The notes beneath the pieces are model-generated. The model saw nothing but the letters and a program-made list of their open reading frames with translations, was not told the origin of the DNA and ran no database searches. 32,000 bases of DNA from Nitrosococcus oceani ATCC 19707 (GTDB lineage Bacteria; Pseudomonadota; Gammaproteobacteria; Nitrosococcales; Nitrosococcaceae). Every line of letters begins with the position of its first letter. The stretch's first letter is position 1. This document shows positions 186 to 22,298 of the stretch, one piece after another. Location: assembly GCF_000012805.1 (NCBI RefSeq), contig NC_007484.1:1650001-1682000 (forward strand). Reading direction: 5' to 3'. The position numbers and the translations under genes are program-made.

Positions 186-463
186 TTGGAGTTTCGCCAT
201 GAATTCGCGCTTCAACGGGCGCTTTGGGTTGGCCACGACTTAGCGCGCAAGACCCTCCATTGGGTATTACCCTCCACGGGCATCACTTCCCGGCCTTCCG
301 CCGGTAGGTCGCCCTCTTGGCAATGGGAAAATGTACCGCGAATTCATGGCGAAACGCGGGTAATGTTGGCCCTCGTGTTCGGCGTGCCGTTTCACTTCGC
401 CTGCCTGCAGCAGGCAGGCGAGCTCACTAGGGGGTTGCTGAACATCCATGTTTAGCTTCAATG
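186..463 (-). mobile_element. tnpB-less miniature derivative (copy 1) of the IS1341-type element at 19785-21240: left end fused to the right-end/omega-RNA region
   Basis: On the minus strand it begins CATTGAAGCTAAACATGGATGT...GAAGTGAAAC, matching 19785-19850 upstream of tnpB-2. It ends ...CTACCGGCGGAAGGCCGGGAAGTGATGCCCGTGGAGGGTAATACCCAA...GCGCGAATTCATGGCGAAACTCCAA, matching 21088-21240 (tnpB-2 3' end plus tail). There is no tnpB. Track ORFs 186..455(+) and 267..512(-) lie inside it. Confidence 0.8.
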
Positions 464-1527
464 TGTTTTTCTGGCATTTGCCGCCGCTTCTGTATGGCGC
501 GGGCAAATTCACGAAGTAACTGCTCGCTTTCCTCCCAGCCTATACAGGCATCGGTGATGCTTTGGCCATAGGTAAGAGGGGTGTTTGGGATGACGTCCTG
601 GCGTCCTGCTACGAGATGGCTTTCCAGCATAACCCCCATGATTCGCCTATCGCCCGCAGCAATTTGTCCCGCAATATCCCTGGCAACCAGAACTTGCTTC
701 TTGGGATTCTTGCTGCTGTTGCCATGGCTGCAATCAATCATGACTTGAGGCCGAAGGCCCGTTTGAATAAGATTATGGGCCGTCTCGTTGACGCTTGCTG
801 CATCGTAATTAGGTTTCTGCCCACCCCGTAAAATGAGATGGCAATCTGGATTTCCGGCAGTTGAAAAAATAGCCGAACGGCCAGCCAAGGTGAGGGAGAG
901 AAAATGATGGGGCTTTGAGGCCGAGACGATAGCGGACATGGCGGCACCTAAGCTGCCGTTGGTCGCATTCTTAAAGCCAACCGGACATGAGAGTCCCGAG
1001 GCGAGTTCCCGATGCACTTGACTTTCAGTTGTGCGAGCCCCGATTGCGCCCCAGGCAATTAGATCAGCGATATATTGTGGGCTAACGAGATCCAGGTATT
1101 CGGTGCCTGCCGGCACACCTGTTTCGGCCAGATCCAACAGCAGCCTGCGGGCCAAGCGCAAGCCTTCATTAATCTGAAAGCTGCCGTCCAAATGGGGATC
1201 GTTAATAAGCCCTTTCCAGCCTACTGTAGAGCGAGGTTTCTCAAAATAAACGCGCATGACGATGAGCAATTCATCGGCAAGCTCATCAATTAGTAGCTTG
1301 AGTCTTTTCCCATAATCCCGTGCAGCCTGGGGATCATGGATGGAGCAGGGGCCAGCGACCACCAGCAGGCGGTCATCTTTCCCGCCGAGCACTTCCTGAA
1401 TGGCTTGCCGGGTTCGATAGACTGTTTTTGATGCCTCGCTGGTAATGGGCAAGCCTTCATGGAGTTGGGCCGGGGGAATAACTTCTTGAATGTTCTTAAT
1501 GCGAAGATCTTCAGTAGGAAAGCTCAT
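427..1527 (-). CDS. 3-deoxy-7-phosphoheptulonate (DAHP) synthase, class I (AroG/F/H type)
   Basis: 366-aa ORF. The N-terminus MSFPTEDLRIKNIQEVIPP resembles E. coli AroG (MNYQNDDLRIKEIKELLPP). It also has FEKPRSTVGWKGLINDP and GLSCPVGFKN motifs. The last 11 codons and the stop (427-462) lie inside miniature element copy 1. Confidence 0.93.
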   Translation of the reverse strand: MSFPTEDLRIKNIQEVIPPAQLHEGLPITSEASKTVYRTRQAIQEVLGGKDDRLLVVAGPCSIHDPQAARDYGKRLKLLIDELADELLIVMRVYFEKPRSTVGWKGLINDPHLDGSFQINEGLRLARRLLLDLAETGVPAGTEYLDLVSPQYIADLIAWGAIGARTTESQVHRELASGLSCPVGFKNATNGSLGAAMSAIVSASKPHHFLSLTLAGRSAIFSTAGNPDCHLILRGGQKPNYDAASVNETAHNLIQTGLRPQVMIDCSHGNSSKNPKKQVLVARDIAGQIAAGDRRIMGVMLESHLVAGRQDVIPNTPLTYGQSITDACIGWEESEQLLREFARAIQKRRQMPEKHIEAKHGCSATP

Positions 1528-3265: not shown

Positions 3266-5080
3266 ATGTCGTTTATTCATTATCGCATTATTCCCAAAAA
3301 TCCCCAGGCCCACCTGTTCCAGGTGACGCTTACTATTTTAGAGCCTGCTCCCGAAGGCCAGTGTTTGTCGCTACCGGCATGGATTCCTGGGAGCTATTTG
3401 ATCCGCGATTTTGCCAAGCACGTGGTCCAGCTTAGGGCCGAATCCCAAGGGCATCCCCTTCCCGTCGAAAAATTGAGCAAATCTCTCTGGCAATGCGCGC
3501 CGAGCGGGGGGCCAGTGACAATTAACTATGAGGTCTATGCCTGGGACAGCTCTGTGCGGGCCGCCCATCTGGACACCTTCCATGGTTTTTTCAACGGAAC
3601 CAGCGTTTTTCTGCGGGTAGAAGGGCAGGCTCATGAACCCTGCACCGTCACCCTTTTACCGCCAGAGGGGGAAACTTACCGCCACTGGCGGGTGGCTACC
3701 GCTTTACCTCGGGCTGGCGCCGAGCCGTATGGTTTTGGCGACTATCAGGCGGGGGACTATGAGGAACTGGTTGATCATCCCGTGGAAATGGGTGAGTTTA
3801 GCCTGGTTACCTTCGAGGCTTGCGGCGTTCCCCACGATATCGCCATCACCGGCCGTCATCGGGCTGATATGGAACGTCTGAGCCGGGATCTGAAGATCTT
3901 ATGCGAGCACCATATCCGCTTCTTCGGTGAACCAGCGCCTATGGATCGGTATGTCTTTTTGGTGACCGCCGTGGGCGAAGGATATGGGGGACTGGAACAT
4001 CGAGCTTCGTGTGCTTTGTTATGCAATCGGAGCGACTTGCCCCAAGCAGGAGAAACCGAAGTTGGGGAAGGTTACCGGAATTTTCTTGGCCTATGCAGTC
4101 ATGAATATTTCCATACCTGGAATATCAAGCGTATCAAGCCCGCCGCTTTTGTCCCTTACGATCTTCAGCAAGAGAATTACACCCGCCTGCTTTGGGCTTT
4201 TGAAGGGATTACCTCCTATTATGACGATCTGGGGCTGGTGCGCTCGGGGCTGATTAGCCAAGAGAGTTATTTGGAGTTGCTGGGACAGACCATCACCCGG
4301 GTGTTGCGAGGCTCGGGCCGGCTTAAGCAAAATCTAGCCGAATCCAGCTTTGATGCCTGGACGAAATTTTACCAGCAGGATGAAAATGCTCCCAATGCTA
4401 TCGTGAGTTACTATACCAAGGGTGCATTGGTAGCCCTGGCGCTGGATCTAACCCTGCGGTGGGAAACCCACGGCGAGTGTTCCTTGGATGGGGTGATGCG
4501 GGCATTATGGGAAAGTTATGGTAAGACGGGGGTAGGCGTGCCTGAAGACGGGGTAGAACGTCAGGTTGCCGAGGTTTCAGGATTGGATATAACGGATTTC
4601 TTTGAAGTAGCGCTGCGGCGGGCGGAGGATCTTCCCTTGCAAGCGCTGTTGGCCCAGGTAGGGATTTGCTATGCCCTGCGCGTCCCGGAATCCAGTGATG
4701 ATAAAGGCGGCAAGCCTGGCAAAGGGGGCACGCCTCGCGCTAGGCTAGGCATCCGCTTGGTTCCGAATGAAAAAGAGGCCAGGATCAGCCAAGTCTTCGA
4801 TGAGAGCGCGGCTCAATGGGCCGGGCTCTCAGCCGGGGATAGCCTCATTGCCGTAGATGGTATCAGGGTGACCGCCAGCAATTTGGAGAAAGTCATTAGC
4901 TCTTATCCAGGAGGAGCGAGAGTTATCATCCATGCTTTTCGGCGGGATGAATTGCGGGAGTTTGAGGCTGCTTTGCAACTGCCTCCCAAGGATACCTGCG
5001 TGCTGACTATTGATGAAGACGCCTCCCCAACCGCTGTAGTGGCCCGGGAGGCTTGGTTATTGGAGTTTCGCCATGACTGA
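3266..5080 (+). CDS. M61 family (glycyl aminopeptidase-like) zinc metallopeptidase with C-terminal PDZ domain
   Basis: 604-aa ORF with HExxH zinc motif HEYFHTWN. PDZ-like segment LGIRLVPNEKEARISQVFDESAAQWAGLSAGDSLIAVDG. RBS AAGGTGG lies upstream of the ATG. The last 6 codons and stop (5060-5080, LEFRHD*) are supplied by miniature element copy 2. Confidence 0.88.
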   Translation: MSFIHYRIIPKNPQAHLFQVTLTILEPAPEGQCLSLPAWIPGSYLIRDFAKHVVQLRAESQGHPLPVEKLSKSLWQCAPSGGPVTINYEVYAWDSSVRAAHLDTFHGFFNGTSVFLRVEGQAHEPCTVTLLPPEGETYRHWRVATALPRAGAEPYGFGDYQAGDYEELVDHPVEMGEFSLVTFEACGVPHDIAITGRHRADMERLSRDLKILCEHHIRFFGEPAPMDRYVFLVTAVGEGYGGLEHRASCALLCNRSDLPQAGETEVGEGYRNFLGLCSHEYFHTWNIKRIKPAAFVPYDLQQENYTRLLWAFEGITSYYDDLGLVRSGLISQESYLELLGQTITRVLRGSGRLKQNLAESSFDAWTKFYQQDENAPNAIVSYYTKGALVALALDLTLRWETHGECSLDGVMRALWESYGKTGVGVPEDGVERQVAEVSGLDITDFFEVALRRAEDLPLQALLAQVGICYALRVPESSDDKGGKPGKGGTPRARLGIRLVPNEKEARISQVFDESAAQWAGLSAGDSLIAVDGIRVTASNLEKVISSYPGGARVIIHAFRRDELREFEAALQLPPKDTCVLTIDEDASPTAVVAREAWLLEFRHD

Positions 5081-5362
5081 TGTCGATTTTGTTCCTACAA
5101 AACCTCATCCGCCTGGAGAATTCGCGCTTCAATGGGTGCCTTGGGCTGGCCACGACTTAGCGCGCAAGGCCCTCGGTTGGGTATCACCCTCCACGCGCAT
5201 CACTTCCCCTCCTACCGAGGGTAGGTCGCGCTCTTGGCAACAGGGAAAATATACCGCCAATTGTGGGCGAAACGCAAGTCATGTTGGCCCTCGCGCTCGA
5301 TGCGCCGTTTCACTTCGCACTCTCACTGGGGGGTCATTCAACATCCATGTTTAATTCCAATG
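5060..5362 (-). mobile_element. tnpB-less miniature derivative (copy 2) of the IS1341-type element
   Basis: Minus strand: CATTGGAATTAAACATGGATGTTGAATGACCCCCCAGTGAGAGTGCGAAGTGAAAC ... GGGGAAGTGATGCGCGTGGAGGGTGATACCCAACC ... GCGCGAATTC...GTCATGGCGAAACTCCAA. It is collinear with copy 1 and with the ends of the tnpB-2 element. It carries about 45 extra nt in the right-end tail relative to copy 1. Track ORF 5073..5354 lies inside it. Confidence 0.8.
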
Positions 5363-14389: not shown

Positions 14390-14803
14390 CTAGTCGGGTG
14401 TTTTCTGGCTTTGCACATAGGCTTTAAGTGTCTCGATAGTTGCCCCGCCCGCGCTACAAGCGAAATACGATCTCGACCACAGCGCGGCGCTCTTGCTCAA
14501 GTTCGGGAGGTGGGTATTCAACAAGCGCACGCGCCGGGATGAGGTGGACTTCAAGTTGTTGACCAACACGCTGATCGACAGCTTTGGCGGGTATTCCACG
14601 AGCAAATGGACGTGGTCTTCCTCGCCATCGAACTCAAGGATGCGGCAATCGAGTTTCTCGCAAGCTGACTCAAACGCCTCTCGTAGCTGCCCGAGTATAT
14701 AGCCATCGAAGACCTTGCCTCGGTACTTCGTTGTGAAAACGAGATGGACGACAAGCCGCGTAACGCTGTGTCGGCCTCGTCGATAATCTTCTTGCACACT
14801 CAC
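14390..14803 (-). CDS. tnpA: IS200/IS605 family Y1 (HUH) transposase TnpA
   Basis: HUH motif DHVHLLVEYPP. Catalytic Tyr region IETLKAYVQSQ. N-terminal YRRGRHSVTRLVVHLVFTTKYR. The track ORF runs to 14875, but homologues start near the in-frame GTG at 14803 or 14797. Confidence 0.9.
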   Translation of the reverse strand: MSVQEDYRRGRHSVTRLVVHLVFTTKYRGKVFDGYILGQLREAFESACEKLDCRILEFDGEEDHVHLLVEYPPKLSISVLVNNLKSTSSRRVRLLNTHLPNLSKSAALWSRSYFACSAGGATIETLKAYVQSQKTPD

Positions 14804-14847
14804 TTGATTTTCTTCGTTGCAGCCTTTAATCTGTAGGCATTGTAGCA

Positions 14848-16053
14848 ATGAACACTGATATGTTGAAAGCCACAAAGATACGCCTCTACCCTACGAGGGA
14901 GCAGGCGGAGTTTCTGAACCGCCAGTTCGGTAGCGTGCGGTTTTGCTATAACACCGGCCTTCGCATTATGTCTCACCGCTATAAGCGACACGGCCAATCC
15001 TTGAGCGCCAAGTATGACATCAAGAAATTGTTGCCTGTGGCCAAGAAGTCCCGTAAGTATGGATGGTTGAAGGAGGCGGATTCGGTTGCGCTCGCTCAAG
15101 CGTGTATCAATCTCGACAAGGCGTTTCAGCGTTTTTTCAAGGAAAAGAAAGGCTATCCCCGGTTCAAGCGCAAGCGTGGCAAGCAGTCGAGCTACCATTG
15201 CATGAGCGTGAGCTGCGGTGAAAGCTGGGTCAAGGTGCCGAAGCTCGGCCCCATCAAGGCTAGAGTTCATCGGTCCGTTGAGGGCAAATTGAAAAGCATC
15301 ACCCTGTCGCGCACCGTTACCGGCAAACACTACGCGTCTCTCCTGTATGAAACCGAGCAACCTGTCCCTGAGCCGATGACGGCTATCGACGCCACCAAGG
15401 TGCTCGGCTTGGACATGGGTCTCTCGCACCTGGCGATTGACTCCACTGGACGAAAAGTAGCCAATCCACGCTTTATCAAGCAGGTTCAGAAAAATCTCAA
15501 GCGCAAGCAACAGTCGCTGTCACGAAAGCAAAAAGGCAGTTCCAAACGAGCAAAAGCACGCCTACTGGTCGCTAAGGCTCACGAGCGGGTCGCTGATGCC
15601 CGCAGTGACTTCCAGCATAAACTGTCCCGGCAGATCGTTGACGACAACCAAGCGGTGATCGTCGAGACGCTGAAAGTCAACAACATGATGAAGAACGCCA
15701 AGCTCGCCAAGCATATCGGCGATGCCTCTTGGCACGCCTTGATCGCCAAGCTGGCATACAAGGCCAAGGAGCAGGGCAAACATCTGGTCAAGATCGACCC
15801 CTGGTTTGCCAGCTCAAAAACTTGCCATGTATGCCAGCACAAGATGGATGCCATGCCACTAAATATCCGGTCGTGGGCGTGCCCTACCTGCCACACGCGC
15901 CATGACCGCGACATCAACGCGGCGCTGAACATCCAACATCAAGGCATTTTGAAGTTGAAGGCGGAAGGGCTGTCCGTCTCTGCCCATCGAGGCTTGCGTA
16001 AATCCGGCATGCCGCCGGTGGCTGCCGTTGAAGTGGGAAGCTCCGTCCGATAG
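14848..16053 (+). CDS. tnpB: TnpB (IS605 OrfB) RNA-guided endonuclease, catalytic residues intact
   Basis: 401 aa. N-terminal KIRLYPTREQAEFLNRQFG. RuvC-I LGLDMGL, RuvC-II VIVETLKVNNM, Zn finger CHVCQH...CPTCH, RuvC-III HDRDINAALNI. Confidence 0.93.
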   Translation: MNTDMLKATKIRLYPTREQAEFLNRQFGSVRFCYNTGLRIMSHRYKRHGQSLSAKYDIKKLLPVAKKSRKYGWLKEADSVALAQACINLDKAFQRFFKEKKGYPRFKRKRGKQSSYHCMSVSCGESWVKVPKLGPIKARVHRSVEGKLKSITLSRTVTGKHYASLLYETEQPVPEPMTAIDATKVLGLDMGLSHLAIDSTGRKVANPRFIKQVQKNLKRKQQSLSRKQKGSSKRAKARLLVAKAHERVADARSDFQHKLSRQIVDDNQAVIVETLKVNNMMKNAKLAKHIGDASWHALIAKLAYKAKEQGKHLVKIDPWFASSKTCHVCQHKMDAMPLNIRSWACPTCHTRHDRDINAALNIQHQGILKLKAEGLSVSAHRGLRKSGMPPVAAVEVGSSVR

Positions 16054-18280: not shown

Positions 18281-19333
18281 ATGGCCGCCCATGATGCTTC
18301 CTATAAAAGGCTGTTTTCCCACCCCGAGATGGTAAGAGATCTGCTGCAAGGTTTTGTGCGGGAACCCTGGGTTCAGCAGCTGGATTTTTCTACCCTGGAG
18401 AAAGTCAGCGGCAGCTACGTGACGGATGATTTAAGGGAGCGGGAAGACGATATTATCTGGCGCCTCCGCCATCAGGAGGGTTGGATGTATATCTACCTGT
18501 TGCTGGAGTTCCAATCCACGGTAGACCCCTATATGGCGGTAAGAGTGCTGGCCTATGTGGGTTTACTCTATCAGGACCTGATTAAAGCTCGGTATATCGC
18601 GCCCAATCAGAAATTGCCGCCGGTCTTTCCATTGGTACTTTACAACGGTGGCCCGCGCTGGAGGGCGGCGACGGAGGTCGGTGACCTGATAACGCCGTTA
18701 GAGGGCGGGTTGGAACGTTACCGTCCTAGTCTACGCTATCTTTTAGTCGACGAAGGCGATTACCAGGACGAAGCGCTCGCGCCATTGAAAAACCTGGTTG
18801 CGAGTTTATTTCGCTTAGAGAACAGCCGGACCCCGGAGGAGCTCTTACAGGTTTTGCGGAACTTGCTACAATGGTTACAAAGCCCGGCGCAGAAGGGGCT
18901 GGAGCGTGATTTTACGCTCTGGCTGAAGCGGGTGTTATTACCGGCCCGTCTGCCCGGTGTGGAAATTCCTTCCGTTGCCAGCTTAGAGGAGATGAACAGC
19001 ATGTTAGCCGAACGCGTGGTGGAATGGACCCAGCAGTGGAAGCAAGAAGGTATTCAAGAGGGTATTCAGCAGGGTATTCAAGAGGGTATTCAGCAGGGTA
19101 TTCAAGAGGGCATTCAGCAGGGTATTCAAGAGGGCATTCAGCAGGGTATTCAAGAAGGTATTCAGCAAGGCGAAACCCAAGTTTTGCGCCGACTGCTTGC
19201 TCGCCGTTTTGGTCCTTTGCCCGAGTGGGTGGAAGCTCGTCTCCAAGCAGCGGATACCGCTGCCCTGGAAGAATGGGCCGAGCGGGTGTTGGAGGCAGCG
19301 ACTTTGGATGGGGTCTTTCAAGAAAAACCCTAA
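18281..19333 (+). CDS. Rpn-family (YhgA-like, PD-(D/E)XK) recombination-promoting nuclease / putative transposase with DUF4351-like C-terminal domain
   Basis: N-terminal HDASYKRLFSHPEMVRDLL...DIIWRL...YIYLLLEFQSTVDPYMAVRVLAY, typical of Rpn/YhgA nucleases. C-terminal ...LLARRFGPLPEWVEARLQAADTAALEEWAERVL. Contains 10 in-frame GIQE/GIQQ repeats. Confidence 0.85.
   Translation: MAAHDASYKRLFSHPEMVRDLLQGFVREPWVQQLDFSTLEKVSGSYVTDDLREREDDIIWRLRHQEGWMYIYLLLEFQSTVDPYMAVRVLAYVGLLYQDLIKARYIAPNQKLPPVFPLVLYNGGPRWRAATEVGDLITPLEGGLERYRPSLRYLLVDEGDYQDEALAPLKNLVASLFRLENSRTPEELLQVLRNLLQWLQSPAQKGLERDFTLWLKRVLLPARLPGVEIPSVASLEEMNSMLAERVVEWTQQWKQEGIQEGIQQGIQEGIQQGIQEGIQQGIQEGIQQGIQEGIQQGETQVLRRLLARRFGPLPEWVEARLQAADTAALEEWAERVLEAATLDGVFQEKP
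19049..19168 (+). repeat. In-frame tandem repeat, 10 x 12 bp (5 x 24 bp), GGTATTCAAGAG/GGTATTCAGCAG, encoding (GIQE-GIQQ)5
   Basis: Counted directly: units start at 19049, 19061, ... 19157. The paralogous fragment at 21883-21918 has only 3 units. Confidence 0.95.
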
Positions 19334-19346
19334 ACGCAGACCGCGG

Positions 19347-19530
19347 TGTCCCCTCTCCCCTTACCGGGTGAGAGAGAACGAGAGAGAAATCTAATGCCCC
19401 TCTCCCTCTTGCGGGGGAAGGCGAGGGAGAAAAATCTAGTCCCTTTCCCCTTGCAGGGTGGGAAAAGGCGAGGGAGAAGAATCTAATGTCCCTCTCCCCC
19501 TTGCAGGGGGAGAGGGTGAGGGTGAGGGGG
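19347..19530. repeat. Array A: four tandem ~45-49-bp hairpin repeats (CCCCTCTCCCC-TTGCA-GGGGGAGAGGG type) ending in a G-run tract
   Basis: Units start at about 19347, 19396, 19441 and 19488. Each has a C/T-rich arm, a short loop, a G/A-rich arm and an AATCTAAT linker. The last unit ends GGGGGAGAGGGTGAGGGTGAGGGGG (19506-19530). There are no unique spacers. Confidence 0.9.
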
Positions 19531-19784
19531 TTAAACAAAATTTGGTTCGAGCTAAAAAATATGTTGTCGAACGCAACTTTACGTTTTATTCCCTTGGGGA
19601 GGTAAACGAGGTTCTCCTCTTATCCCTGGGAAAGAGAATAATGGGGGTCGGTGCGGCACGCCTGGCGAGCCTGTGAAGAGAAAGAAAATCTCTTCCTTGT
19701 TTCAATCCCCGGAAAGTTTTAAATCTAAATTTAACCCTTAAAATCTTAAAATTTCCATTGAGGGATATCGATGTTAATCGAATA

Positions 19785-21240
19785 CATTGAAGGAATACAG
19801 GGATGTATGACGACCCCCCAGCGAGCGTGCGAAGTGAAACTTTGCTGCGAGCGCGAGGGCAAGGTAAAGTGACGTTTGCGGCGGGCAAAATTCGCGGTAT
19901 CATTAAGGGCGCGGCTAGACAGTGTTGGAAGCACTACCTAGCCACTTGCCACCGACCCAATGAGAAAAGCATTGAGGCCATGACCGAGCACGATTCTACC
20001 ACTGTTCAGCGGTCCTATACATTCCGCTTCTACCCCACGAGTGTCCAGCGCCAGCAACTGGCTATGGAATTCGGCCATGCCCGGTGGGTATGGAACACCT
20101 GTCTGACCTGGCGGGGCCGTCAATATAGGGTACATGACAAGCGCGTGACTGGCGTTGATTTTAGCCGCCAGCTCACGTTCCTCAAAGGGTTAGGCCCGTA
20201 CGCTTGGCTCAAGGAGGCCAGCGCCACCTGCCTGATCCAAAAGCTCAGGGACCAGGACACGGCCTTCAGGCATTTTTTTGCGGGGCGAGCGAAGTATCCC
20301 CGTTTCAAAAAAAGAACGCATACCCAAAGCATCCGCTATCAACTCGATCAACGTCAGGTAGCAGGCATGTATCGAGCGGGCGAGTTTCTTAAATTGCCCA
20401 AACTCGGGGCACTCAAGCTCAAGTGGTCCCGCAAGCCCCAGGGCATCCCCAAGATGGTGACGGTCACCCAGGATTGCGTCGGCCGTTATTGTGTTTCGTT
20501 CATGTGCGAGGAAACCCTCCAACCCCTACCGCGAAAGCCAAACGGTATCGGTGTTGATTTAGGGGTGTGCGATGTGGTGGTGACCTCCGAGGGCTGGAAG
20601 TCCGGTAATCCTCGGCACCTACGCACGCATACCCGGCAACTCAGAAAAACCCAGCGCAGGCTATCCCGCAAGCGTAAGAGCAGTGTTCGTTGGCATCGTC
20701 AGCGGATACGGGTTGCTAAAGCTCATGCCAGGGTGAGCAATACCCGCCAGGATTGGCTGCACAAGCTCACCACGGCGCTGATTCGCCAGGCGGGGTTCAT
20801 TGCCATGGAAACGCTCAACGTCAGGGGCATGATGGCCAATAGACGGCTATCCAAGGCGTTGGGCGATGTGGGGATGCATGAACTCAAGCGGCAAATGGAA
20901 TACAAGGCTAAGTGGTATGGCCGCGAGTTTAGGCAAGTAGACCGCTGGGCGCCCACCAGTAAAACGTGCTCGGTGTGTGGCGCAGTGCAAAAAGCCATGC
21001 CGCTCAAGGTCCGCGAGTGGACCTGCCCGGACTGCCAAACAGCCCATGACCGCGACATCAACGCGGCCAGAAATATTTTAATTTTAGCTACCGGCGGGAG
21101 GCCGGGAAGTCATGCGCGTGGAGGAGTATACCAACCGGCGGCGGCTTATGGCTGCTAAAGGACTCCATGGAAACGCGAATTGCAGCAAGGCGAGTGAGCT
21201 TGTCTGGAACAAGCGAACGAGACTTAGCCGCAAACTCCAA
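19785..21240 (+). mobile_element. tnpB-only IS200/IS605-family (IS1341-type) element; parent family of the miniature copies
   Basis: The left boundary is set where homology among the three copies begins (CATTGA/G motif). The right boundary is set where homology ends (AAACTCCAA, 21232-21240). The flanks reconstruct a hicB reading frame. No tnpA. Confidence 0.8.
19980..21158 (+). CDS. tnpB: TnpB (IS1341-type) RNA-guided endonuclease, catalytic residues intact
   Basis: Likely start MTEHDSTTVQRSYTFRFYPT (ATG 19980). The track ORF start at 19803 reads through the non-coding left end. RuvC-I IGVDLGV, RuvC-II IAMETLNVRGM, Zn finger CSVCG...CPDCQ, RuvC-III HDRDINAARNI. Confidence 0.92.
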   Translation: MTEHDSTTVQRSYTFRFYPTSVQRQQLAMEFGHARWVWNTCLTWRGRQYRVHDKRVTGVDFSRQLTFLKGLGPYAWLKEASATCLIQKLRDQDTAFRHFFAGRAKYPRFKKRTHTQSIRYQLDQRQVAGMYRAGEFLKLPKLGALKLKWSRKPQGIPKMVTVTQDCVGRYCVSFMCEETLQPLPRKPNGIGVDLGVCDVVVTSEGWKSGNPRHLRTHTRQLRKTQRRLSRKRKSSVRWHRQRIRVAKAHARVSNTRQDWLHKLTTALIRQAGFIAMETLNVRGMMANRRLSKALGDVGMHELKRQMEYKAKWYGREFRQVDRWAPTSKTCSVCGAVQKAMPLKVREWTCPDCQTAHDRDINAARNILILATGGRPGSHARGGVYQPAAAYGC

Positions 21241-21256
21241 GAGGAAGCTCTTAATA
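21088..21256 (+). ncRNA. Candidate TnpB omega-RNA (reRNA): scaffold 21088-21240 plus flank-derived guide from 21241
   Basis: This position (3' end of tnpB through the right end) is where TnpB omega-RNAs are known to be encoded. It is the only part of the tnpB region retained in the tnpB-less copies (core GGCCGGGAAGT(C/G)ATGC(G/C)CGTGGAGG). The 5' end and guide length are not determinable here. Confidence 0.5.
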
Positions 21257-21470
21257 GAGCCCACTATGAAATGATTGAAGACGATGAACCTTACTATGGA
21301 GAAATAAAGGAACTTCGAGGGATTTGGGCAACTGGAAAAACATTAGAGGAATGCCGACGTAATCTTAAAGATGCCATTGAGGGGTGGCTCTTATTAAGTA
21401 TTAGGAGGGGGTTACCGGTCCCAAAATTAGGCGACTATGAAATCAAGGAAGGCGAGGATGTCATGGCATA

Positions 21471-21687
21471 ATGCCCCGGCTAACTCCGGTTTCTTCTAAG
21501 GAGCTTATAAAGCGACTGAAGATTCTAGGATTTCAAGGGCTTTATACCGGCGGCAAGCACTTATACATGATCAAGGGTGAGCTGAGGCTGACCATACCGA
21601 ACCCACATAAAGATTAGTGCAGGTTTACTAAGAAGAATTCTTAGGCAAGCAAACATAAATCGTGACGACTGGCTGAAACTCAAGTAA
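21471..21687 (+). pseudogene. hicA: hicA-family toxin gene, frameshifted
   Basis: The ATG overlaps the hicB stop (TAATG, 21469-21473). It reads MPRLTPVSSKELIKRLKILGFQGLYTGGKHLYMIKGELRLTIPNPHKD* (stop 21615-21617). The expected C-terminus ISAGLLRRILRQANINRDDWLKLK* continues in the +1 frame (21613-21687). Confidence 0.7.
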
Positions 21688-21735: not shown

Positions 21736-22083
21736 GAGCGTGATTTTACGCTCTGGCTGAAGCGGGTGTTACTACCGGCCCGTCTGCCCGGTGTGGAAAT
21801 TCCTTCCGTTGCCAGCTTAGAGGAGATGAACAGCATGTTAGCCGAACGCGTGGTGGAATGGACCCAGCAGTGGAAGCAAGAAGGTATTCAAGAGGGTATT
21901 AAAGAAGGCATTCAGCAAGGCGAAACCCAAGTTTTGCGCCGACTGCTTGCTCGCCGTTTTGGGTCTTTGCCCGAGTGGGTGGAAGCTCGTCTCCAAGCAG
22001 CGGATACCGCTGCCCTGGAAGAATGGGCCGAGCGGGTGTTGGAGGCAGCGACTTTGGATGAGGTCTTTCAAGAAAAACCCTAA
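21736..22083 (+). pseudogene. 3' fragment of an rpn paralogue (DUF4351-like C-terminal domain only); possibly still expressed as a small protein from 21835
   Basis: Aligns to 18902-19333 with 4 substitutions counted over about 310 non-repeat nt, and has 3 rather than 10 GIQ units. An in-frame TAG (21727-21729) lies just upstream. It retains the internal GAGGAG-N9-ATG (ATG 21835). Confidence 0.75.
21883..21918 (+). repeat. Short version (3 x 12 bp) of the GIQE/GIQQ tandem repeat
   Basis: GGTATTCAAGAG GGTATTAAAGAA GGCATTCAGCAA; compare 19049-19168. Confidence 0.9.
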
Positions 22084-22094
22084 CGTAGACCACA

Positions 22095-22231
22095 GTGTCC
22101 CCTCTCCCCTTGCAGGGGGTAAGCGCGAGAGAGAAATCTAATGCCCCTCTCCCTCTTGCAGGGGGTAAGCGCGAGAGAGAAATCTAATATCCCTCTCCCC
22201 CTTGCAGGGGGAGAGGGTAAGGGTGAGGGGG
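22095..22231. repeat. Array B: three tandem ~47-bp hairpin repeats of the same family as array A
   Basis: Units start at about 22095, 22143 and 22189. The first two are nearly identical (CCCCTCTCCC..TTGCAGGGGGTAAGCGCGAGAGAGAAATCTAAT). The last ends GGGGGAGAGGGTAAGGGTGAGGGGG (22207-22231). Confidence 0.9.
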
Positions 22232-22298
22232 TTTATGGATATAAAAGAAACGGATGAGAGATTAAGAAAATATCCTTTCTAACAGATCTGGAAGGACA

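Follow-up and report, generated by a model that had tools for sequence, protein, structure and literature searches.

The ends of IS200/IS605 transposons are thought to be two independent hairpin modules, brought together by the TnpA dimer alone. Why, then, is a segment inside the left end of one such element complementary to the last bases of its right end? The element in question encodes only TnpB and lies at 19792-21240 in a 32,000-nucleotide stretch of the chromosome of Nitrosococcus oceani ATCC 19707 (contig NC_007484.1, positions 1,650,001 to 1,682,000 of the forward strand; hereafter, the window), which also holds two miniature copies of the same family. The initial annotation of this stretch noticed the complementarity, took its compensatory changes as the signature of a selected structure, and suggested three roles: synapsis of the ends in single-stranded DNA, sequestration of the omega-RNA 3' scaffold, or coupling of the tnpB 5' untranslated region to omega-RNA maturation. 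In this study, we followed the pairing through the family. The element itself belongs to a known kind and is ordinary in it; what is new, and well supported, is the pairing between its ends, for which we propose a mechanism. Tentatively, with a probability of about 0.45, we read the complementarity as a top-strand single-stranded DNA structure that joins the ends for peel-and-paste transposition by TnpA.

Covariation of the two ends

Two helices connect the ends. H1 joins a left-end arm to the 9 nt that precede the terminal motif TCCAA (arm H1'), and H2 joins a second left-end arm to an arm further inside the right end (H2'). On recheck, the positions and sequences previously given for the arms of all three window copies were correct, with one clarification: the miniatures lie on the minus strand, so that their low-coordinate arm is the right end and their high-coordinate arm the left end (Table 1). 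In the full-length copy, the distance to the nearer boundary is 83-91 nt for H1 (left) and 6-14 nt for H1' (right), and the right end runs in the order H2', a 45-nt insert holding a hairpin, H1' and TCCAA. Copy 1 has no right-end hairpin, and both helices merge there into a perfect 19-bp stem. Copy 2 retains a different hairpin between its right-end arms, the stem of which appears, by eye, to carry compensated changes. For a single copy, chance alone would give, by our calculation, about 0.05 exact 9-mer complements when some 190 nt of left end are compared with about 80 nt of right end.

Loci of the family were gathered from a protein-profile scan with one genome per species, in which Nitrosococcus is absent, from a metagenome DNA-pattern scan for the omega-RNA core, the matches of which were mostly other TnpB families or chance matches in coding sequence, and from a few exact-protein look-ups. 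Members were recognised by the transposon-adjacent motif (TAM) TTGAA(G/T), by a left-end hairpin with a (T/G)GGA loop followed by GACCCCGCC, and by the core GCGCGTGGAG...GAAGCGCGAA together with TCCAA as transposon-encoded motif (TEM). Being the 9 nt before TCCAA, H1' can be defined independently of the left end. Its exact reverse complement was found upstream in 26 of 47 family loci, against 0.36 expected, and the misses are mostly truncated contigs. As controls, the direct sequence gave 4 matches, and the reversed and the complementary sequences gave none. Moreover, left and right ends taken from different loci seldom match (34 of 1584 pairs). The matched loci hold at least 12 different H1 helices, such as ATCCGCGCC, GTCCGCCCC, GTCCGATCC, GTTTCGCCA, GTTTGCGGC, GTTTCACCG, GTTGCGCCA, GTCCAGCCA, ATCCATGAC, GTCGCGCCG and GTCGGTCCC, always located 76-128 nt inside the left boundary. 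The sequence of H1 is freely replaced among TnpBs of 55-95% identity.

The arms do not vary independently. Among 29 distinct sequences, 98.9% of the H1:H1' cells are paired, against 69% when the sequences are shuffled and 27-41% when the partner is slid. Compensatory changes on both sides occur at 8 of the 9 pairs, and a one-sided (wobble) change at none; the covariation score is 0.779 versus 0.215 in shuffles, and 0 of 500 shuffles reach it. The counts come from a gapless 37-nt construct, the MAFFT alignment of the junction having been discarded for a 4-column gap inside H1'. In this construct, the left-end arm was located by the complement search itself, a caveat that the chance and control counts given above counterbalance. 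Hence, the view that the compensatory changes reflect a selected structure is strongly upheld, and it extends from the three window copies to the whole clade. Two other measures were uninformative. RNAduplex energies for 380-nt left ends against 75-nt right ends ranged from -40 to -90 kcal/mol for cognate and non-cognate ends alike, these sequences being long and G+C-rich; and Smith-Waterman scores on the variable part of H2, which extends beyond TTCGCG only in some subfamilies, did not separate cognate from non-cognate ends.

Shortened members of the family keep the pairing as well. Six independent miniature derivatives retain the left end through H1. Like the ORF-less IS200/IS605 derivatives known as PATEs (palindrome-associated transposable elements; ORF, open reading frame), both window miniatures and four from metagenomes (L113, L130, L148, L165) keep both ends and contain no protein-coding gene. 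They differ from PATEs in that they keep a promoter-like -10 hexamer, the whole omega-RNA and the left-end/right-end helix, as a 19-bp stem in copy 1.

Some members depart from this pattern. The miniature L185 (2683-2849) has the left-end hairpin and GACCCCGCC fused straight to the omega-RNA at a CCGCC microhomology, without H1, H2 and the -10-like hexamer; a Y1 tnpA homologue is located about 6.6 kb away on the same contig. In the Spectribacter copies (L015, L016, L020, L052), H1 has two adjacent mismatches (GTGACACCC versus GGGTGGAAC) and H2 is a perfect 10-bp helix (TGATTCGCGC), which may carry the pairing in this subfamily. In L034, ORFs of an IS5-like DDE transposase (429-1300) separate the left-end hairpin from H1. 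They apparently represent a nested insertion of about 870 bp, and the sister copy L050 is intact.

At about 40 loci of other TnpB clades, left-end/right-end complementarity did not rise above shuffles, with an H2-like 13-mer in L035 and an 18-mer in L041 as possible exceptions. A second, unrelated element of the window, which carries both tnpA and tnpB, behaves likewise: the longest exact complement between its ends is 7 nt, under the shuffle mean. Because neither set exceeds shuffles, the pairing is, as judged from these sequences, peculiar to this clade rather than an artefact of the method. The possibility that it is a general property of IS200/IS605 elements was rejected on the same grounds.

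A predicted three-way junction that would compete with the omega-RNA fold

When the left-end segment and the right-end tail were cofolded at about 30 loci with unrelated helices, the same three-way junction was obtained, in which the left-end strand is joined to the sequences on either side of the right-end hairpin over 9 to about 30 bp. H1 is universal in these cofolds, and H2 is present in most subfamilies, but not all. In the ATCCGCGCC subfamily, the pairing reaches about 30 bp, with ATCCGCGCC, TTTTTCGG and CGGTTCGCGC paired with GCGCGAACCG, CCGAAAAA, the hairpin flank and GGCGCGGAT. Within H2, TTCGCG is conserved, and the bases beside it covary with the right end in relatives.

The left end has a fold of its own. 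In a sequence-only alignment, its hairpin and a long-range internal stem (CCGCCGG/CCGGCGG) covary, with compensatory changes at 8 of 10 pairs, and 0 of 500 shuffles reach the covariation score or the percentage of paired cells. We also folded, as DNA, the right-end/left-end junction that an excised circle would contain. It adopts the predicted architecture with z = -5.9 in L008 and z = -2.8 in the window element: H2 closes the fold, from which the right-end hairpin protrudes as a branch, and within H1 lie the junction of TCCAA with the left end, the left-end hairpin and the left-end stem. Miniature copy 1 gives z = -4.5 when folded as DNA. As RNA, its fold is dominated by the 19-bp helix (z = -3.4). 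The right-end tail of L164 (minus strand) carries the terminal module, that is, the 3' half of the hairpin, H1' and the TEM, in tandem (...GGCGCGGATTTCAA ... GGCGCGGATTCCAA), which recalls the choice of an alternative right-end boundary reported for ISGst2.

The same right end is predicted to encode the omega-RNA. Conserved covarying stems span from the 3' end of tnpB to TCCAA, and RNAalifold predicts for the family a covarying 5' hairpin, a closing stem CGCGU:(G/A)CGCG and an inner stem with G:U pairs. In the closing stem, one pair is U:G in 17 of 24 sequences and U:A in the remaining 7. H2' shares GCGCG with this stem, an overlap of 4-5 nt. End-to-end pairing and the omega-RNA fold are therefore mutually exclusive in one molecule. 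Neither H1' nor H2' has a local partner in this family. The possibility that the arms are halves of similar local hairpins, one at each end, was rejected, as neither arm has a local partner.

The core motif contains UGGAG, to which TCCAA is complementary. In ISDra2, scaffold positions -5 to -3 pair with -103 to -105 in a pseudoknot (PMC10097598), and TCCAA/UGGAG sits at this very position; by analogy, TCCA(A) probably pairs with the invariant UGGAG in the same way. The right-end boundary motif also occurs as TCTAA and TCCGA, variants that, in our own reading of the sequences, would preserve the pseudoknot through wobble pairs. All Rfam families fell below threshold, and searches at the gathering score and with E values up to 10 gave nothing beyond a weak match of the copy 1 core to RAGATH-18 (RF03064; 21.0 bits, E 0.21, under the gathering score of 44.9). 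The resemblance to RAGATH-18, the right-end RNA (reRNA) of IS607 TnpB (PMC11061315), consists of a GUGGAG ... GAUGAAGC-type core with a 5-bp closing stem, whereas the ends here look like those of IS200/IS605 (Y1) elements and not IS607.

Single-stranded DNA or RNA as the paired molecule

Whether the helices form in DNA or in RNA depends first on where transcription begins. We called a -10-like hexamer when at least 5 of 6 positions matched, including T1, A2 and T6. Such a match was found within 75 nt 3' of H1 in 17 of 34 unique loci, and in none of the 34 within the 80 nt 5' of H1. The hexamer lies 10-53 nt 3' of H1 in elements without an arc gene and in most miniature copies. Close relatives have TATCAT, TATAAT, TAGAAT, TATATT or, in copy 1, a weaker TACATT, with T1, A2 and T6 kept throughout.

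Many relatives carry a small antisense gene of the ribbon-helix-helix (RHH)/Arc type between H2 and tnpB. In these arc-carrying elements, the -10-like hexamer lies 182-225 nt 3' of H1, between arc and tnpB; the arc-tnpB intergenic region of arc-carrying IS605 elements has been suggested to be a bidirectional promoter (bioRxiv 10.64898/2026.09.24.754181). When the arc gene is present, H1 and H2 hold a fixed distance to the left boundary and not to tnpB. Accordingly placed antisense genes were seen in L008 (1287-1451, minus strand), L005, L014, L080, L121, L130, L188 and L201. In L008, L014, L080, L121 and L188, the reverse complement of H1 and the H2a part of H2 encodes a conserved PKNRRG C-terminal tail and the stop codon, with PKTRRG in L130, so that in members with arc this stretch is constrained by its coding function as well. 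The initial proposal that the tnpB 5' untranslated region is coupled to omega-RNA maturation is disfavoured on two counts: the left-end strand is upstream of the -10-like hexamer in every subfamily, and in relatives with arc both the antisense gene and the arc-tnpB intergenic region lie between this strand and tnpB.

The use of wobble pairs points in the same direction. No wobble was found in 261 cells of H1, with a single G:T in L200, and only one was seen in the left-end hairpin and internal stem, whereas the RNA-only omega-RNA stems of the same loci use wobble, U:G in the closing stem and G:U elsewhere. Among the few mismatches of H1 and H2, A:C is about as frequent as G:T. Altogether, the position of the promoter, the position of the arc gene, the conflict with the closing stem and the near-absence of wobble favour top-strand DNA as the paired molecule.

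Of the three roles first suggested, synapsis of the ends in single-stranded DNA, in which TnpA would use the structure, fits this evidence best. The element also has true IS200/IS605 traits, namely scarless insertion after the TAM and hairpins at both ends. In the proposed mechanism, H1 and then, in most subfamilies, H2 would anneal to H2' ... hairpin ... H1', right beside the cleavage motif TCCAA. The resulting junction would link the right end to a left-end domain that consists of the left-end hairpin, an internal covarying stem and the TAM. While the element is still part of the donor strand, the two sites of TnpA cleavage, 1.3 kb apart, would thereby be placed side by side. After excision, the circle would hold its right-end/left-end junction and the left-end hairpin within a single compact structure. 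With a Y1 TnpA acting in trans, the element could then be excised and reinserted. The statement that the element lacks tnpA held for the family, as no tnpA was found inside any of about 40 loci, but the window does contain a gene for a Y1 TnpA (14393-14875), which belongs to another element.

Several observations weigh against this reading. To our knowledge, elements of the IS608/ISDra2 type need only about 40-60 nt per end and no end-to-end pairing. The local contacts between DNA guide and TEM described for IS608 and ISGst might be hindered here if both flanks of the right-end hairpin were paired. The Y1 TnpA of the window belongs to an element with different ends, and none is predicted for this family. 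The miniature L185 shows that the pairing is dispensable for persistence, and 1-2 mismatches occur in H1 of L078, L079, L150 and the Spectribacter copies. The -10 calls follow a weaker, consensus-only criterion; a promoter scanner based on the consensus gave no prediction for the left end or for a miniature copy. H2 has some T:G pairs, and the wobble argument rests on related, non-independent sequences. Finally, the full-length copy and copy 1 lie in sense orientation inside host genes (hicB-like and DAHP synthase, for 3-deoxy-D-arabino-heptulosonate 7-phosphate), so that read-through RNA with both arms probably exists.

This last point leaves room for an RNA switch in read-through transcripts, the only setting in which sequestration of the omega-RNA 3' scaffold, the second of the roles first suggested, could take place. 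The left-end segment would pair with H2' and H1', break the closing stem and sequester the guide-proximal scaffold; a duplex of the RNase III type may form, and host-driven transcripts would not be matured to active omega-RNA, or would be processed differently. The exclusion of the closing stem by the end pairing, the sense orientation of the two copies, the dominance of the 19-bp helix in the RNA fold of copy 1 and the T:G pairs in H2 are all consistent with such a switch. IStrons provide a precedent for exclusive folds in the transcript of a TnpB transposon, in that case splicing versus omega-RNA (10.1101/2023.11.20.567912). Their intron spans from the left to the right boundary and, as with the pairing here, its RNA fold excludes the omega-RNA fold. 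They differ in that the present elements have no group I intron match, a left end of only about 110-170 nt and no terminal G, and in that the left-end strand appears, from the predicted promoter, to be untranscribed from the element itself. A group I intron or IStron was rejected, since Intron_gpI matched neither the full-length element nor copy 1 at E values up to 10. A switch does not account for the near-absence of wobble in H1 and the left-end stems when the RNA-only stems use it, nor for G:T not being favoured over A:C among the mismatches. Moreover, copy 2 is antisense to its neighbours, and the switch would depend on a host context outside the element's control. We therefore regard it as unlikely, if worth keeping in view.

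That the complementarity is used between two molecules seems distinctly unlikely. In one form, a left-end transcript would act as the second half of a split guide RNA, an anti-repeat resembling trans-activating CRISPR RNA (tracrRNA) that forms H1:H1' and H2:H2' inside the TnpB ribonucleoprotein; in miniatures, both parts would be one closed RNA. The guide-proximal scaffold of ISDra2 is a local helix beside the pseudoknot (PMC10097598). Stem 4 and the pseudoknot of ISDra2, like the repeat:anti-repeat of Cas12f, place a helix directly 5' of the pseudoknot strand and the guide, as H1:H1' would here; the ISDra2 helix is a local hairpin, whereas the partner strand here is 1.3 kb upstream and the right end has a separate local hairpin. 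In sister families found through the same core motif, inspection by eye suggests local hairpins at the positions of H2' and H1', arms that in this family are without local partner, and by analogy a helix at this position might matter to TnpB. The split guide is nevertheless very unlikely in view of the left-end strand lying upstream of every predicted promoter and, in many members, beyond the antisense arc gene, of the destruction of the conserved closing stem by H2 pairing, and of the near-absence of wobble. The turnover of H1 among TnpBs of 55-95% identity likewise implies that the protein does not read H1.

In the other form, the unpaired H1' and H2a' of the omega-RNA in the TnpB ribonucleoprotein would hybridise to the single-stranded left end of the circle or donor and couple target binding by TnpB with excision or reinsertion by TnpA. 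The left-end top strand is the one that becomes single-stranded in IS200/IS605 transposition, and H1', free in the omega-RNA, is strictly Watson-Crick complementary to it. An intramolecular DNA-DNA duplex would compete and is simpler, and the H2b' part of H2' is taken by the closing stem in RNA; we consider this tether less probable still than the split guide. Inverted repeats are common at the transposon ends of other families, and part of H2 (TTCGCG/CGCGAA) is conserved in sequence, but that the arms are inverted binding sites of one protein, or owe their match to shared ancestry or chance, is hardly credible given the at least 12 unrelated H1 sequences among close relatives that encode no transposase, each complementary to the right end of the same copy, the rarity of matches between non-cognate ends, the failure of slid and shuffled controls, the asymmetric placement of the arms (83-130 nt internal at the left, terminal at the right, where a hairpin divides the arm) and the absence of the feature in other TnpB clades. 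Terminal inverted repeats with a sequence fixed by a transposase were likewise rejected for asymmetric arms and too free a covariation.

As stated initially, the pairing was not known as a described feature, and the TnpB/IS605 literature that we searched contained no description of a Watson-Crick duplex between left and right ends. This literature describes left- and right-end hairpins, local guide-TAM and guide-TEM contacts with covariation, and IStron intron RNA in conflict with the omega-RNA fold. Closest to single-stranded DNA synapsis is the DNA guide of IS608 and ISGst (10.1101/2023.03.14.532601), where pairing within the single-stranded top strand of an end also aids end recognition, covariation also reveals the pairing, and right-end DNA also doubles as omega-RNA sequence. 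Those contacts comprise 4-5 nt, are partly non-canonical and stay local to one end; here, 9 to about 30 Watson-Crick pairs run from end to end.

If the DNA reading is true, a conserved end-to-end duplex would add a synapsis step at the nucleic-acid level to peel-and-paste transposition. The functional left end of this clade would then measure at least 100-170 nt, which would explain why miniature derivatives retain so much of it. Three codes would be superimposed on the terminal 60-80 nt of the right end: the TnpA hairpin and TEM, the omega-RNA scaffold and the complement of the left end. This triple duty would be relevant to trimming omega-RNAs of the clade for genome editing, or to building mini-transposons. 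Were the partner RNA, the clade would offer a natural split or self-inhibited guide RNA, with a bearing on the origin of tracrRNA; in the intermolecular case, the TnpB ribonucleoprotein would carry the circle to a TAM-flanked site and hand it to TnpA, a primitive form of RNA-guided reinsertion. The helix is short, modular and highly variable, which makes disrupt-and-restore experiments simple.

The window elements and their surroundings

The element at 19792-21240 is a TnpB-only IS200/IS605 (IS1341-like) element. Its 392-aa product matches the Pfam families HTH_OrfB_IS605 (8.5e-13), OrfB_IS605 (RuvC; 6.8e-24) and Cas12f1-like_TNB zinc ribbon (7.3e-25), and is 94% identical to its best homologue, a TnpB of Nitrosococcus oceani. 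Joining the flanks 19771-19791 and 21241-21471 gives an intact 83-aa UPF0150/HicB-like ORF (Pfam E 9.6e-31), so that the insertion is scarless and 3' of TTGAA; it interrupts the hicB-like antitoxin gene after codon 7. Comparison with both miniature copies also supports these boundaries. The ends are those of the IS200/IS605 type, without terminal inverted repeats and with subterminal hairpins on the same strand. Across the family, the left-end hairpin stem varies between UA, GC, CG and AU, and its (T/G)GGA loop resembles that of the right-end hairpin, which contains TGGA.

Table 1. Positions, in the window, of the full-length element, its parts and the two miniature copies.
Feature	Position	Strand	Remarks
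TAM TTGAA	19787-19791	+	abuts the left end; from flank joining; family consensus TTGAA(G/T) in alignment
Full-length TnpB-only IS200/IS605 element	19792-21240	+	restored ORF; comparison with miniatures
Left-end subterminal hairpin ATACA-GGGA-TGTAT	19795-19808	+	stem covaries in the family
H1, left-end arm GTTTGCGGC	19874-19882	+	exact complement of 21227-21235
H2, left-end arm AATTCGCG	19889-19896	+	exact complement of 21174-21181
-10-like hexamer TATCAT (predicted tnpB/omega-RNA promoter)	19898-19903	+	directly 3' of H2
tnpB ORF, 392 aa	19980-21158	+	Pfam domains, homologues
Predicted omega-RNA core GCGCGTGGAG ... GAAACGCGAA	21114-21179	+	closing stem 21115-21119 with 21173-21177
H2', right-end arm CGCGAATT	21174-21181	+	shares 4 nt with the omega-RNA closing stem
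Right-end subterminal hairpin GCTTGT-CTGGA-ACAAGC	21198-21214	+	between H2' and H1'; loop CTGGAA conserved
H1', right-end arm GCCGCAAAC	21227-21235	+	complement of H1
TEM TCCAA	21236-21240	+	final 5 nt of the element; probable omega-RNA pseudoknot strand
Predicted omega-RNA guide (hicB-like flank)	21241-21256	+	position only, from knowledge of TnpB
Miniature copy 1, no ORF	186-456	-	right-end arm 191-209 with left-end arm 337-355, 19/19
Miniature copy 2	5060-5355	-	H1' 5065-5072 with H1 5266-5273; H2' 5119-5126 with H2 5255-5262, 7/8

The tnpB frame stays open for 59 codons further upstream (19803-19979), through H1 and H2. This extension seems to be part of the 427- and 425-aa annotations of close TnpB homologues, in which the gene was probably called too long. 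Miniature copy 1 occupies the extreme 3' end of the DAHP synthase gene (427-1527, minus strand); the stop codon of this gene (427-429) lies within the left end of the copy, and its last codons are supplied by the element.

The second IS605-type element of the window extends over 14393-16053. Its Y1 tnpA (Pfam Y1_Tnp, E 1.5e-36) is on the minus strand, and a 401-aa tnpB (14848-16053) is divergent from it, the called 5' ends of the two genes overlapping.

The full-length element and its hicB-like target are flanked by a duplication of about 600 bp with 94-97% identity (18902-19532 and 21736-22233). A YhgA-like/Transposase_31 (Rpn-type) gene contributes its 3' part, with 12-nt tandem repeats, to the duplicated segment; the full 350-aa gene is found at 18281-19333 and only a fragment at 21766-22083. 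Within the duplicated segments, G+C-rich perfect palindromes (CCCTCTCCCCCTTGCAGGGGGAGAGGG) resembling repetitive extragenic palindromic (REP) sequences are present at 19490-19516 and 22191-22217, with related ones at 19376-19440 and 22123-22187.

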